This document shows positions 41,770 to 48,548 of a DNA stretch of 64,000 nt, piece after piece. Within the stretch, counting starts at the first letter, position 1. Every line of letters starts with the position of its first letter. The notes under the pieces were generated by a model that did not search any database, was not told where the DNA came from, and saw only the letters and a program-made list of their open reading frames with translations. The translations under genes and the position numbers were made by a program. The DNA lies in NCBI GenBank assembly GCA_010093705.1, contig MU006090.1:372001-436000 (forward strand), written 5' to 3'. Origin of the DNA: Patellaria atrata CBS 101060. Lineage: Eukaryota.

Positions 41770-43428
41770 CTACGCCCCGCTCTCCCGGCCATGCTCATAC
41801 TCCCACCGTCCCCTCCTCCTCCCGACTTTGAACCTCCATAACCCAATCACCAATGGCGCGGGCACAACCGCGATACAAACAACCGCTTGAAACACAAGCG
41901 CGCGCTTCATGCTGCCCTCAGGCTCACCCTCAGCACCCTTAAGCGCGTTCATGATAACGATAAACAGTCCACCGAAGAGCTGGCCGCCGGTCCAGCAGAT
42001 CGTACTCCCAACCTCCGGCGACGCAGGCCACGTCGCTTCGACCAAATATTCCAACGCCACCGGCATTAAGGAGAAACTCGCAGCCCCGAGGATCGCGGCG
42101 ATGGTGAAAGGGGTGGCGAGGGAGCGGGTGGCGGGGGCCCAGATGAACGCGAGGTACGAGGCCGCGATGATGGGGACGAGGAGTTTGATAGCGAGGAGGT
42201 AGGCCTTGGTGCGGTCGAGGATCGGGGAGGATATGGCGGCGGCGACGAGGCCGACGGCGATGAGGAGGGCGCCTGTTATACCCGCGTCGGACTCGGTGTA
42301 GGCGTAGGGGTAGAGGATCTGGTTGAGCAGGGAGGAGAAGGCGTTGAAGGAGGCGACGTAGGTTGCGAAGGGGAGGAGGATAAAGTAGAAGGTTGGCGTG
42401 TGCAGGAGGATGCGGAGGGATTGGGTGATGGGGGTTTTGGGGAGGGAGGAGGAGGATGAGGAGGGTGTGGGGGGGTGTGGGGAGAGGAAGAAGGAGGGGA
42501 GACAGGCCACGGTGGAGATTAGGGAGACCCAGAGGACGAGGTTAGGGATGTCGGAGGGTTCAGTGGCCCACATTGGTCCTATCAGTTGGGCGAGCTGGTG
42601 TCATGTTAGTCTTGGAGGAGAGTTTGGGCGTTGGAGAGACGAACCGCTCCGCCGAATGGGTTTGCGAGTGAGGCTACGGCTGTTGCTGATATCCTCCCTT
42701 TTTCTGAAAACCACAAATCGCTGAAGCGTGTGGGTGCGGCGAGGACGAAGGGTTGTGCTAGGCCTGTCAATATCTGGCCGAACATTACCACTTTGAACTT
42801 CCTGCTCATCGGTGATCTGGCGCCTATGTACCGCACCCAATTTCCGGTGAACAGGAGGACGCTTGAGGCTACGATCGCGGGTTTGGGGCCGAGATGAAGG
42901 AATTTTATTACAAGGGGACTGACGGTGACGAAGGCGAACATGAAAGCGGTACTGAGCCAATTGACCGCCGTTTCTGATACTTCGAAGTACTCGGAAGTGG
43001 TTTTTGATACGGCTGAGAAGGTGAGCCACTGCGTTCAAGAGTCAGTATCTCCTAGTTATTTCCGTGACGTTGGAGAGCCTCACATCCCAGCTCACGACTA
43101 TATTCAAAAGCACCAACTGCAGCAGTCCAAACCAACGCTGTTTATACACTCGATAAGGCGCCGTGACTATACCATCTTGCCTCCTCTCCTCTCCACCCGG
43201 ACTTGCGACATCTTCCACGTATTCGGGTTGCGCCGACGAGCTCGACTCTCCATTCGTGAGCGGTGCTCCAATAACGCGGGTGGAGTCCTTCGTATCGGCG
43301 TAGCTGTCACGCGACTGCAACCGCTGCAAACTGTGGTCTTTGGGGTTCATGGACGGCGATGGGGGAGGGGAATCTTGAGGTTGGAGCAAGAGTCTCTCCC
43401 GCTCCTCTGCAGGGTGGGGAGAATGCAT
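41770..43428 (-). CDS. MFS transporter, FLVCR-like; exons 43428-43084, 43028-42645, 42594-41770
   Basis: [63 protein letters not shown] and multiple TM segments. Canonical introns. Confidence 0.9.
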
Positions 43429-44613
43429 CCAGATAAGTTCACATGCGCGAGGTTTACAATCTAGGTACGGAGTATAGGACTGAAAGGAGGTTAAATTACT
43501 TCATGCTGCATGTTCATTGGGTGAAGATGGCGGGGATCCCTCATTGAGGTGGTATGAAGGTTAAAGGGGTTTGATATGGAACATTTTGTATAGTAAGGAG
43601 GATTGAATTGTTCACTATCAAAAAAGAAAGAGTAAAGAACAGGAGGATATTCAATACCTATATCAGACTAATAAACTGACAAACGCAATCGTGAATCAGC
43701 ATTTTGCATCTCTCGAATGTTTATATAGAGATACCGTAGGCCGATGTTGAGTAGAAGAGTGTTACTTCGAGTATGTCTTTTATGACCTTTTCCTATTTCA
43801 AGTCATTGAGTTAGGAGCTGAAGAGTTCAAGATGCTTTTATATAGGTAATTCCTGTACTTAGTATATCTTTGAATTCGATTCTTACTGCATTCTGTACTA
43901 TTACTATCTTATGATACTGTACTCTAGTTGATCTCTGATCTCCCCTTTTTCCTCCCCTCGCTCACTGCGCCCTTCCACAGCCCCCGTTTCCCCAAGGAAT
44001 TGAGAATTGAATTCTGTCATTCCGAAATAGAACATTGCAACTGTAAACGTATCCTTACCGTCTTCGAAGGTAGTCTTTTTCTAGAAACACCGCACACCAA
44101 TCCTGTACCGTAACTGTTCGAATCTGCGCTGTCTGGCTAGCTACCGGGCGGTATTCATCGTTGCAGTGACGCCTGGGCTTGACATAGGTACATTTTATGA
44201 AAGCGCCATAGGCAGAAATTACAAGTAGTCAAGTACAGACTTGTACATCGCCTGCTCTTGCTTCATACAAAATACCCGCCAAAAGGTACACAAAAGCCAA
44301 AAAAGACTCACTTCACACTTGGACGTCCACCTTCCCTACCCCATAAACGCTTTCTTCCCACCTCCAACATTTCCTACCGACTCTTTGTTTCTCTTATTGA
44401 TATTTTATCCTCTTACAAAAATTTCCTGGGTTATCGCAGGCTGTCTAAAGCTGCAGATATCCCTGCCTGAAGACCAACCTTAGAACGTCACGGACACCAA
44501 CCCCTCCCACCGTGCACGCCCACACTACCATCCCCCCTCCCCCCCCCCCAATCCCATATTACATTCCTCCAACCTCTGATTACCTTACCCGACCAGCACA
44601 TCGCCCAAAGTCA

Positions 44614-46008
44614 ATATCTCTACCATCCGCTTACAGCAACGAAATCAACGCCCTCAATCGCGAAGTCCTCAACCATCAACCTACCGGCGTCCTCCAGTTC
44701 TGTGCCAACTTCTTCCTCCGTCGTCTCGAATCTCAGCGGGCCGAACCTCTACTGGCCGAACAGCATTCCTCAAGCAAGGAAGGTGGCATGGCTGAGAGCA
44801 AGTTCCCGGGCAGCAATCCTTTCGGCACGAGCCCTAGCGGCACGCTGACGACGAGTGGAATGCATCGTTTGGAAGAAGAAGAAGAAGCGGATACCATCGC
44901 CTCACCCACCGCTTCTTCCTTCCCACGTAGCAACAACAACATGGATCCCAACGCCTCTGCTTCATCCGGTGCCTCGCCCTTTGGCAACTTTGGCGGCTTC
45001 AATCCCACCGGCAAGGGCTCCTCAACCCTCTCTCCCTCCTCTAATCCAGGCGGTCTCGATCCCCAGAGTTTCCCAAACAACTACAAGATGAACCGTCGGA
45101 CATCCGTCTCCGCCGAATCTCTCAACCCAACCTCCTCCCTCCACGAAAACTGGACGCCACCCTACCACAACAAAACCCCAGAGCAGCAAGCACGTCTCAA
45201 GAAGGCCGTCTCAGGCAACTTCCTCTTCTCCCACCTCGACGACGAGCAATCCGTCCAAGTCCTCGGCGCCCTACAGGAAAAGCCGATCCCATCTAAGGAC
45301 ATCAGAGTAATCACCCAAGGCGACGCAGGCGACTACTTCTACGTCGTCGAATCCGGCCACTTTGACATCTACGTCAACGAATCCCGCAACCTCGAATCCG
45401 ACAAGCTTGAATCCGGCCTCATCGACCTGGGGTCCAAAGTCGGCGCCGTCGGGCCCGGTGGCTCCTTCGGCGAGCTCGCCCTCATGTACAACGCCCGCCG
45501 CGCCGCCACCGTCATCTCCTCCGAACCTAGCACCCTCTGGGCCCTCGATCGCGTCACTTTCCGCCGCATCCTCATGGACTCCGCCTTCCAGCGCCGGAGA
45601 ATGTACGAAGGGTTCCTCGAGACGGTCCCACTCCTCGCTTCCCTGACATCCTATGAACGCTCGAAAATTGCAGACGCACTCGAGACACGCAAGTTCCCTG
45701 CCGGCACCAAAATCATCACTGAAGGCGACGTCGGCGACGCGTTTTACATCCTCGAGTCCGGCACCGCCGAGGTGTACAAGCGGGGTAAGGATCAGCCGGT
45801 TAAAACGTACGGCAAGGGAGACTATTTTGGCGAGTTGGCCCTGTTGAATGATAAACCCCGCGCAGCGAGCGTGGTCAGTTCTGAGGAGGTTAAGGTGGCC
45901 TGGTTGGGGAAGAATGGATTTCAGAGACTCCTGGGGCCTGTGGAACCTATTCTGAGGAGAAATGATCCTACCAAGGAGGAGGGTGTTGATCCGCTCGCGC
46001 CGAGATAG
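44614..46008 (+). CDS. pkaR: cAMP-dependent protein kinase regulatory subunit (start uncertain: first AUG 44788; D/D domain from ~44614)
   Basis: RRTSVSAES inhibitor site; two cNMP domains (FGELALMYNARRAAT, FGELALLNDKPRAAS); upstream in-frame RIIa-like D/D segment LNREVLNHQPTGVLQFCANFF. Confidence 0.95.
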   Translation: MSLPSAYSNEINALNREVLNHQPTGVLQFCANFFLRRLESQRAEPLLAEQHSSSKEGGMAESKFPGSNPFGTSPSGTLTTSGMHRLEEEEEADTIASPTASSFPRSNNNMDPNASASSGASPFGNFGGFNPTGKGSSTLSPSSNPGGLDPQSFPNNYKMNRRTSVSAESLNPTSSLHENWTPPYHNKTPEQQARLKKAVSGNFLFSHLDDEQSVQVLGALQEKPIPSKDIRVITQGDAGDYFYVVESGHFDIYVNESRNLESDKLESGLIDLGSKVGAVGPGGSFGELALMYNARRAATVISSEPSTLWALDRVTFRRILMDSAFQRRRMYEGFLETVPLLASLTSYERSKIADALETRKFPAGTKIITEGDVGDAFYILESGTAEVYKRGKDQPVKTYGKGDYFGELALLNDKPRAASVVSSEEVKVAWLGKNGFQRLLGPVEPILRRNDPTKEEGVDPLAPR

Positions 46009-46672
46009 GGGGTGTGTGGGATAGGGATTATGGTAGGAGTGAACTAGGGGATCAAGGATGAAGGTGTGAATGGAGCGTAGAGAAGGAAACGAGGCATAGG
46101 AGGAGAGGGATCGAAACTGTACCCCTTGACCGATATGAGACATGAGGGTCTGTCTGGAGGGTCTGTCTGGCGTTGGACTGTGTGTGTGTGTTTTTTTTTT
46201 TCTTCTTTCCTTTGGTTTGTTTTTATCTTACTTAGTCCTATAGTGAGCTGAGAGAGAGGGTATTACCATATTACACTACACTTCACCACACTACACTACC
46301 TTGCACCACCGTAAGAGACGATGTGAGTATCTATCATATGATGTCTTGCCCGTTTTCGTGTCCGTTCGAGGGTCAGTGAAAAGTAGGAGAGTGAGTGCCG
46401 GGATCTTTGAGAGATGGATGGGGTTTTGGCGTCAGGTTGGTATATGACAGGTCATCAACATCACCGCCGCATTCACATCAAACACATCACATATCACACA
46501 TCACATCACTCAAACCAGCAACCCAAAACCAAACAAAAAGCGAAAAAGAAGTCTATATCTAACTACAGCGGGATACTCGATGCAAGACTCCAAGTTTGAG
46601 TTCGAGTTCGAGGTAGGTTCATAGTACAGCAGGGGTTCTTTGTACAAGGTAGGAGATGGCGTGGTGTTAGGA

Positions 46673-47475
46673 TTATTTGAGGGCTTTGAAGAGCTTGGGG
46701 GCGGCGCATTGGGTTGCGCAGTGTGTGAGGTGGAAGACTGGGTTGTGTTAGTCAGTGGTTTTTGGTTTGGGATTGATAAGAGGGGAGTGTTGTGGTGAAT
46801 GGGTAAGAGTAGAAGGAAGATGCATTGATGCCAATTGCAAGTTTGAGAATGGGAATTAAGAATGCGAAGGTGATCGGTTTCGATTGTTGAATATTGGGGA
46901 CGGGACGTACACTCCTCAACGCAATTCTCATCCGCCTTTCCCTCCTCATCGATCTGCCTCGTCACACGCTCGACGCACTCATCGTAGTGGTGCTTGACTC
47001 CGGAGCATTGTTTCGAATTGGCACATTCTACCCTCACATTAGCACGACCATCTCAGCCCATAAAACCCTTCTAATCATCTCAACTCCCCCAATCACACGA
47101 GAAAAACAAGGAGTCAAACCTACCCTCCTCAAACTTCGGCTTCGGATCCTCCGGCTCCTCTTCTTCCTCTTCCTCTTCCTCCTCCGGCGCCTCTACATCC
47201 TCACTCTCGGCCCTCGCTTTAGCCTGCCCGCCCGTCTGTCCGCCAGTCTGTGGCTTCGTGTCGCTGGTGTCGGTATCGCCGCTGCTCTTCTTGGCGTCCT
47301 TCGCGTTGACGTCGGCCTCCTCGTCGCTCTCCTCGTCGGTGCCGGAGGCGGGCGTGCGCGTGCTCGCGCCCCCGGATACCTGGCCCGACTGCGAGGACGA
47401 GGTCGGGGATTCGGCGTGCGTGGTCGAGGGGAGGAGGTCGGTGGTTAGGTCTGAGAGGAAGCTGAGGAGACCCAT
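46673..47475 (-). CDS. QCR6: Cytochrome b-c1 complex subunit 6 (hinge protein); exons 47475-47124, 47027-46911, 46737-46673
   Basis: Acidic stretch followed by EDPKPKFEE-ECANSKQC...KHHYDECVERV...ENCVEE-FFHLTHCATQCAAPKLFKALK. Confidence 0.93.
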
Positions 47476-48548
47476 TTTGAAACGAGAGGGAGAGAGGGCT
47501 TCAATGGGTGTTCAATTGGTGGTGGGAGGTTGATGATTGATGGGTTGGAGATGGGATTGGAAGCTTTGGAGGTCTTGAGTGCTTTGGCCGGCTTGGCGGG
47601 TTTGGTGCTGGGGATTATTTCTTCGGTGCGTGATTGGCTAGGGATTTGTTTTGTCGAGGACCTTTAAATCAATCGTCTCTACAGTACTAGGTATAGGCAA
47701 CTTTTCAATAAATTCTCTGCTAACCCAAGTGCAGAAGTTTTGAACTACGGTGTGAATCGTCAGACTTGATATCAACATCCCCGGAATGCTGTTCGAGAGT
47801 ACTAGACACGGTAAGGTATCTTTACTCCGTATCCCAGCTAAATACCTCTTTTGGGGGCCGTTTCTTGTTTCCTTCTAATAATATTTCATCGAGCTACTCT
47901 AGCCCCAGGTGTGGAGGCTGTACCTTGTTGTGATTCCACCGGCCATGGTAGTAGATATCTACGATGAGTTCTGCATTTTCTCTCTTTTCAACTTGACCGA
48001 TACTTCATATTTCCTGACCAATAACCCCCATTTCCTTCTTTAATTTTTTCAAGAAATGTTCGCTATTTGGAGATTTGTACTTTACTTCTAGGTGTCCAAC
48101 AAGCGTACATACCCTGGTGTGTACCGTGGTCATCAAAGAGAAAGAGGTTCGAAATAGAAGCAAGAATATGTCCAGAGGGCAATAATGGAACTTCCTGAGG
48201 GGAAACTCCTCCAAAAGATATCCATCCAAGACCGACGTACTTTGAAGCGTTTATTTGTCAAGGAACCGCCTCGAGCAATTGCAACCTTGCTACCACCGAA
48301 GCACGAATTATATAACTTTATTGACATCGACATAGCGGTATGTCCAACGCCCGTACAATTATACAGATCCAGAACACTAAAAACTTTCAAAGGAACGTAT
48401 TGCTATCAGAAAGTCGTCAATATGTCCCAAATGCCAAGCGTTTGCCAGGCTATATGCTTTAATCGATCATCATAGAGGGACCCTTGGTCAGTGGGATGTA
48501 TCTGATCTCCTCCAACAACCTACTGGTATTCAGTCACAGCCTAGGATC

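Follow-up and report, generated by a model that had tools for sequence, protein, structure and literature searches.

An apparent AUG-to-AUA change at the ancestral start codon of Patellaria atrata pkaR places the dimerization/docking domain upstream of the first AUG

The gene encoding the regulatory subunit of protein kinase A (PKA-R; gene pkaR) lies within a 64,000-nucleotide (nt) stretch of contig MU006090.1 of Patellaria atrata CBS 101060 (assembly GCA_010093705.1, positions 372,001 to 436,000 of the forward strand; hereafter the window, in whose own numbering all positions are given). The codon at the start position that is conserved across the family reads ATA (44614) in this gene, and a single base change thus appears to have placed the dimerization/docking (D/D) domain behind a non-AUG start, leaving a functional-looking short form that would begin at the first AUG of the frame (44788). 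On the strength of the sequence, we give about an even chance to the reading that the gene now yields mostly this short, D/D-less form together with a minor, non-AUG-started long form. Dimerization of PKA-R and its docking to anchoring proteins both depend on the D/D; thus, whether the D/D is made or not decides how the kinase is organized in the cell.

The window encodes, at 100% identity, the PKA regulatory subunit P0001 (474 residues) of P. atrata CBS 101060, which is the sole protein of this species among the best 120 hits of the homology search; the other 119, Dothideomycete proteins (P0002–P0120; 64–78% identity, with the nearest relative at 76–78%), served as the set of relatives. With respect to the features that mark fungal Bcy1/PkaR proteins, tandem cyclic nucleotide (cNMP)-binding domains (PF00027, 128.5 bits, two stretches in the frame) with both phosphate-binding cassettes were found, as was an RRxS site upstream of them. 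This site, RRTSVSAES, is an established inhibitor site of PKA-R, and eight of its nine alignment columns are invariant, the ninth being at least 90% conserved (alignment A1). The D/D segment, ISLPSAYSNEINALNREVLNHQPTGVLQFCANFFLRRLE, begins at ATA 44614 in the same frame as the two cNMP-binding domains and scores 36.4 bits with Pfam RIIa (PF02197; cutoff, 22.4) over residues 65–98 of the stop-to-stop frame, that is, 44641–44742. Among solved chains, the closest to the 58 residues from 44614 is 6xqk_A (E = 1.6e-4), a 51-residue D/D chain from a PKA regulatory subunit, which we take to be that of yeast Bcy1. The D/D is therefore encoded in frame with the regulatory subunit, as an earlier note made from the letters of this DNA had claimed from its resemblance to RIIa. 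It lies 5′ of the first in-frame AUG, however, and falls within an AUG-initiated protein only under the putative spliced model of P0001.

The start position itself is strongly conserved. A Met stands exactly at the position of ATA 44614 in 110 of the 119 relatives, the N-terminus being displaced by 1–4 residues in eight and lying 13 residues upstream in one; the five relatives with longer predictions also carry a Met at the equivalent position, and in 105 of the 119 the protein opens with MSLP or a slight variant of it, the LQF motif ending exactly 29 residues further on. The same was seen in DNA. Among 48 D/D-bearing metagenomic loci, two are cut and 46 could be assessed; the aligned start codon is ATG in 34 of these 46, an in-frame ATG lies within nine codons in 11, and L073 is unresolved. 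Since the relatives read TCA-ATG-TCG across the start and the window reads TCA-ATA-TCT, the difference in the start codon is one transition, G>A at position 44616, and ATA 44614 is a lineage-specific AUG-to-AUA change. The earlier note's placement of ATA where the Met of 'MSLP' would begin was thus borne out in both proteins and loci. Its proposed search for a near-cognate codon conserved across Pezizomycotina, however, returned none: because the relatives have AUG at the aligned position, pkaR in P. atrata carries a changed start codon, not a conserved non-AUG isoform design.

One relative departs from this pattern in another way. P0064 (a Logan protein of 473 residues), the one whose start lies 13 residues upstream, carries His at the conserved start position, unlike all other relatives, and begins with a proline-rich extension, MSTTSPPPPPPATSH-LPSDY. 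It probably represents a second, independent shift of the pkaR start.

Despite its position 5′ of the first AUG, the D/D segment appears to have diverged no more than the rest of the protein. In a conserved-column test, the window was compared with the 119 relatives at D/D columns and at the remaining columns (Fisher test). Among columns that are at least 95% invariant, the window carries a change at 1 of 26 within the D/D and at 9 of 210 outside it (p = 1.0); the corresponding counts are 1 of 32 versus 14 of 246 at the 90% threshold, and 5 of 38 versus 18 of 272 at 80% (p = 0.18). The D/D-to-core identity ratio of 0.97 ranks 27th from the lowest among 120 sequences (median, 1.02), and a D/D profile made from the other 119 aligned proteins gave 104.8 bits for the window segment versus 121.2 for the control locus L001. 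The nine changed invariant core columns are among the three highest counts of the 120 sequences, suggesting that the whole PKA-R of the window sits on a long branch. As so few D/D changes have accrued despite this long branch, selection must have maintained the D/D through almost the entire history of the lineage. Indeed, the nonsynonymous-to-synonymous change ratio (dN/dS, Nei–Gojobori) over D/D codons 2–50 was 0.10–0.18 against five relatives, so that the codon-level conservation for which the earlier note had proposed a check is present. In overall order—RIIa D/D, linker with RRTSVSAES, and two cNMP-binding domains—the encoded protein is like the type-II-like, D/D-bearing PKA-R of Dothideomycetes and Pezizomycetes (e.g., P0002 and Pyronema P0272); it differs from these orthologues in having ATA as the start Met codon, with the D/D 5′ of the first AUG, and in several lineage-specific changes at near-invariant sites, including P>R in the cassette of domain A.

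The first AUG of the frame (MAESKFPG; hereafter AUG2, with AUG1 for the family's D/D-bearing start) lies 174 nt downstream of ATA 44614, all three frames being free of AUG over that distance, and is homologous to the start codon used by lineages without a D/D. The D/D-less set consisted of 22 metagenomic loci (within L033–L076) in which the query is matched by tblastn from residues 53–68 onward only. In 21 of the 22, all sequence-distinct, the first in-frame Met aligns with AUG2 of the window; L067, with an earlier in-frame ATG, was left out of the count of start contexts. A purine occupies −3 in 20 of the 21 starts, and several of the loci have an in-frame stop 1–5 codons upstream of the start. 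No D/D-like sequence was found in any frame of the 22 loci up to 2.5 kb upstream, either by tblastn with eight D/D queries (no match at E up to 1) or by hmmsearch --max (best E, 1.3), with controls scoring 121 and 105 bits in the same profile search; the wider idea of the earlier note, of a D/D hidden upstream of the AUG in such relatives, thus failed in all 22.

The D/D-less locus L040 falls in a 90% cluster with the Penicillium decumbens protein OQD76139.1, and two Ascosphaera proteins (e.g., KAI5309143.1) begin at the AUG2-equivalent Met. These D/D-less forms share with AUG2 of the window a start in strong context and the motif M-x-x-S-x-F-P/T-G/S-x-N-P-F-G, and they retain the inhibitor site and both cNMP-binding domains; unlike in the window, where the D/D frame is intact and conserved, the DNA coding for the D/D is absent there up to 2.5 kb upstream. 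Since the D/D is present in Pyronema and Tirmania (Pezizomycetes) while the Penicillium and Ascosphaera forms start at the AUG2 equivalent, the D/D is ancestral in Pezizomycotina and has been lost in several lineages, which start at the homologue of AUG2. Neurospora MCB and Aspergillus PkaR presumably also belong to the D/D-less group. Among the proteins, P0147, P0150, and P0277 are without the D/D, and some of the D/D-less loci look Sordariomycete-like.

Upstream of AUG2, the leader is free of ATG over an unusual length. On the + strand, ATG 44197 is followed only by ATG 44788, and this gap of 591 nt is the second longest among the 1115 + strand ATGs of the window. Dinucleotide shuffles gave zero ATG in 3.4% of trials for 44200–44613 (mean, 2.9 ATG) and in 0.6% for 44200–44787 (mean, 3.8); in the relatives, the ATG-free stretch upstream of the start spans 131–624 nt. 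An ATG scan bore out the earlier note's statements that the first in-frame ATG is at 44788, that none occurs in any frame between 44200 and 44787, and that ATG 44197 closes after four codons, and all of its in-frame near-cognate codons (CTG 44467, ACG 44485, GTG 44512, and ATA 44614) are present, along with ATC 44530, ATC 44551, and ATT 44563, which it had left unlisted. GTG 44512 (cccaccGTGc) has A at −3 without G at +4, as does ACG 44485. A weak upstream start followed by a strong downstream AUG is what the window presents (ATA, then ggtggcATGg).

In the reading that we favor, ancestral AUG1 ('MSLP...') has become AUA by G>A at 44616 in a gene otherwise intact and intronless. Because the leader is AUG-free and the first AUG is 44788, ribosomes scanning across it would first meet an AUG there, and the main product would be a 406-residue regulatory subunit without D/D, with RRTSVSAES and both cAMP-binding domains; given the known role of the D/D, this short form would be monomeric and unanchored. 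A minority of ribosomes would start at a near-cognate codon—AUA 44614, GUG 44512, ACG 44485, or CUG 44467 being the candidates—and produce a D/D-bearing form at perhaps a few per cent of AUG-level output. AUA has been reported to initiate with Met-tRNAi at an efficiency far below that of AUG (PMC5666671), and a start at AUA 44614 would restore the ancestral N-terminus with its Met. The earlier note had envisaged just such a pair, a non-AUG long form and a short AUG form; its anatomy stands (D/D 5′ of the first AUG, AUG-free leader, strong downstream AUG), whereas a conserved design does not, the relatives using AUG.

Several observations weigh against this two-form output. The context of AUA 44614 is poor, with U at both −3 and +4, and AUA falls outside the better near-cognates, CUG, GUG, ACG, and AUU being generally the best according to PMC5666671. 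The upstream candidates carry a burden of their own: GUG 44512, ACG 44485, and CUG 44467 share the frame only on condition that the C6-T-C11 tract is assembled at exactly the right length, and the tract is where the contigs of both available DNA runs (X1 and X2) break, with one differing letter near their ends at 44532–44561, so that its length, and hence the frame of anything upstream of 44532, is less certain than the rest. A start at these codons would also require a transcript beginning upstream of them, and it would add a proline-rich extension of 34–49 residues, of which no similar stretch was found at the nucleotide level in the aligned upstream DNA of 11 relatives. No stabilizing RNA structure was found 3′ of AUA (z = −0.41 for 44600–44720) or over the leader (+0.22 for 44440–44800). 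At the 70% threshold of the conserved-column test, lineage-specific change is somewhat more frequent in the D/D (7 of 43 columns) than elsewhere (24 of 292; p = 0.095). Moreover, the conservation of the D/D would fit either its continued translation or a very recent loss of its start, two histories that are inseparable because the nearest relative is only 76–78% identical. Finally, the public gene model supplies an AUG by splicing.

A plain loss of the start codon, very recent and either a polymorphism or a mutation fixed in the culture-collection strain, would leave only the short form in production and the D/D as an untranslated relic too young to have decayed, and we regard this as somewhat unlikely, though not far behind the two-form reading. 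The change is undatable given the distance of the nearest relative; the codon is a single base away from a working start; its context is the poor one just described; D/D-less regulatory subunits are viable in other lineages; and there is a slight excess of D/D change at the 70–80% conservation thresholds. However, an untranslated D/D would, by rough inference, drift on the long terminal branch, where synonymous differences are near saturation, and a loss at a random time would be expected to leave several changes at invariant D/D positions, a frameshift, or a stop. As only 1 of 26 such positions has changed and the frame is intact, this explanation needs the change to fall in about the final tenth of that branch. 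An error in the sequence or assembly, with ATG as the true codon at 44614, would involve a single base and was named in the earlier note as a case that would overturn its claim; we consider it very unlikely. Contigs from runs X1 (44532–46173) and X2 (44532–47500), at a depth of about 250–340, carry no differing letter except near their ends and show only the letters ATA at 44614–44616, a site that clears the contig ends by more than 50 nt. The two runs contain 98% of the sampled words; a third, X3, from another organism, covers 3 of 30 bins, with the start region outside them. A low-coverage consensus error is excluded by X1 and X2, but their agreement is not independent confirmation, because both come from one sample that is probably the source of the assembly's own data. 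Stage-specific adenosine-to-inosine (A-to-I) editing would turn AUA into AUI, read as AUG, and provide the full-length form in sexual development; this is the least probable explanation of all. The base before the edited A would be U, which fungal editing prefers at −1 (PMC11156358), and I is read as G (PMC10120046). However, there is no hairpin loop around the ATA site, and fungal A-to-I mRNA editing is placed in Sordariomycetes and Pezizomycetes by PMC11087585, a paper from which the word Dothideomycetes is absent.

The public gene model offers a different way out—that is, transcription from upstream of 43744 and splicing to 44611, giving an AUG-initiated, D/D-bearing protein of 474 residues that begins with MLSRRVLLR followed by SISLPS (exon 43744–43770 joined to 44611). 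P0001 thereby retains the D/D, contrary to the earlier note's expectation that standard annotation would miss it, and its structure is the very case, a spliced upstream exon with an in-frame AUG, that the earlier note had named as refuting its claim. The protein is deposited in this spliced form, the donor GTATGT is consensus-like, and a branch-like CTGAT lies 30 nt upstream of the model acceptor. Nevertheless, we judge the model distinctly improbable. None of the relatives shows an exon or intron at this place, ATG standing directly before SLP in all of them. As many as 68 combinations of ATG, GT, and AG are frame-compatible, all with introns of at least 532 nt, so finding one spliced model is not evidence for it; the usual intron length in this class of fungi is far below 532 nt. 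The splice-like signals that the earlier note had pointed out are both present (CTGAT 44576–44580 and CAG 44594–44596), and CTGAT is the sole CTRAY motif, but the first AG after it is that CAG, whose use would break the frame set by the 27-nt exon; the model acceptor is aAG. An intron would also leave unexplained the ATG-free 414 nt 5′ of ATA, which resemble the ATG-free leaders of the relatives, and the 27-nt exon would lie about 320 nt from the start of a divergent neighboring gene.

Ordinary D/D-bearing relatives show a related pattern of starts. Among 31 distinct D/D-bearing loci (among L001–L064) with ATG at the aligned start, the −3 base of AUG1 is a pyrimidine in 20 (C in 15, T in 5), as compared with 1 of the 21 D/D-less starts (Fisher p = 1e-5). 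AUG2 is present in 18 of the 31, always with a purine at −3 (18 of 18; AUG1 versus AUG2 contrast, Fisher p = 3e-6). This pairing of a weak AUG1 with a strong AUG2 hints that leaky scanning and two isoforms may occur in these relatives, too; it is the hallmark of the leaky-scanning dual-start genes known from Cryptococcus and Neurospora (PMC7049704). A general dual-isoform design is disfavored by the absence of AUG2 from 13 of the 31 loci, which have H, R, T, I, or G in its place. Between AUG1 and AUG2, no shortage of out-of-frame ATGs was detected, synonymous-codon shuffles predicting about 0–0.9 per locus; 12 of the 18 relatives have no ATG in between and 6 have one, and the window has none. 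That filamentous ascomycetes in general set the anchoring of PKA by start-site choice, as if by a dial, is, to our minds, a doubtful proposition. If it were so, one mRNA with a weak AUG1 and a strong AUG2 would give rise to two regulatory subunits, the one dimeric and anchorable, the other free and D/D-less; P. atrata may have turned the dial down further by changing the weak AUG1 to AUA, with the D/D still under selection; and the Penicillium and Ascosphaera forms may be the end point, with the D/D deleted and AUG2 as the sole start.

Precedents for such an arrangement are known from other fungal genes. In the dual-start genes of Cryptococcus and Neurospora (e.g., those for aminoacyl-tRNA synthetases), a weak AUG or near-cognate codon precedes a strong in-frame AUG, and weak AUGs and near-cognates have replaced each other several times between species (PMC7049704). 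The window is like these genes in that a weak or non-AUG start is followed by a strong in-frame AUG, with a functional module encoded between the two. It is unlike them in that the module described in PMC7049704 is a mitochondrial targeting peptide, with ribosome profiling behind both starts, whereas here it is the D/D. In Neurospora cpc-1, near-cognate initiation yields an N-terminal extension (PMC5487733), and the window shares with that gene a conserved coding sequence that lies 5′ of the first AUG and is under purifying selection. The near-cognates of cpc-1 and their A(−3)/G(+4) contexts, however, are reported there to be shared by as many as 98 of 100 species, while the non-AUG codon of the window is unique to one genome and stands in poor context; measured by cpc-1, the amino-acid conservation of the extension is found here and a conserved near-cognate codon is not. 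Among the papers listed in literature searches, none had a title or abstract on non-AUG or dual-start PKA-R in fungi.

Taken with the weak AUG1 of the relatives, the use of AUG2 as the start of D/D-less lineages suggests a stepwise route by which fungi may lose or tune the D/D, and dual starts and stepwise D/D loss form a wider lead. There is also a practical warning, in that the public model conceals the start-codon change by means of an 840-nt intron and an invented-looking exon of 27 nt. The features of the locus are collected in Table 1.

Table 1. Positions of pkaR features in the window.
Feature	Position	Strand	Remarks
First exon of public model, MLSRRVLLR, 27 nt	43744–43770	+	Predicted; donor GTATGT at 43771
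Intron of public model, 840 nt	43771–44610	+	Acceptor aaAG at 44609–44610
Last upstream ATG, 4-codon ORF (open reading frame; MKAP, stop), ATGAAAGCGCCATAG	44197–44211	+	
C-rich leader without ATG, upstream of ancestral start	44198–44613	+	
In-frame TAA, limit of any N-terminal extension	44446–44448	+	
Open frame	44449–46008	+	Starts after TAA, ends with TAG 46006–46008
In-frame near-cognates 5′ of D/D	44467–44514	+	CTG 44467 (T at −3), ACG 44485 (A at −3), GTG 44512
C6-T-C11 tract	44532–44549	+	Contigs of both runs end or overlap at 44532–44561
ATA at conserved start position, context aagtcaATAt	44614–44616	+	ATG in relatives; G>A at 44616
D/D (RIIa) segment and linker, 58 codons, 5′ of first AUG	44614–44787	+	Pfam RIIa part 44641–44742
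AUG2, first AUG of frame (MAESKFPG), MAESKFPGSNPFG, context ggtggcATGg	44788–44790	+	G at −3, G at +4
Coding sequence of short D/D-less form, 406 codons and TAG 46006–46008	44788–46008	+	Inhibitor site and two cNMP-binding domains
RRTSVSAES inhibitor (pseudosubstrate/autophosphorylation) site	45094–45120	+	Near-invariant block
Phosphate-binding cassette, cNMP domain A, FGELALMYNARRAATV	45466–45513	+	R versus P in at least 95% of 119 relatives
Phosphate-binding cassette, cNMP domain B, FGELALLNDKPRAASV	45826–45873	+	

Some further observations concern the leader, the protein, and the neighborhood of the gene. In six relatives (L002, L003, L006, L008, L009, and L012), the leader contains the motif CGACGTCAAAGAGCTGCG about 45–60 nt 5′ of the ATG, with an ACGTCA core like half a cAMP-response element; because its frame relative to the ATG differs between species, it is a noncoding, nucleotide-level element. 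Its counterpart in the window is reduced to ACGTCAC (44485–44491), about 125 nt 5′ of ATA. Within the protein, a 5-residue insertion, NESRNLESDKLESGLIDLG, lies directly upstream of the cassette of cNMP domain A. The divergent neighbor occupies 41770–43500 on the minus strand as three adjoining ORF pieces, with its likely start Met near 43428, and its hydrophobic sequence gives the impression of a transporter. The intergenic region between this gene and pkaR measures about 1.2 kb and contains CT-rich blocks at about 43930–43990 and 44320–44400.

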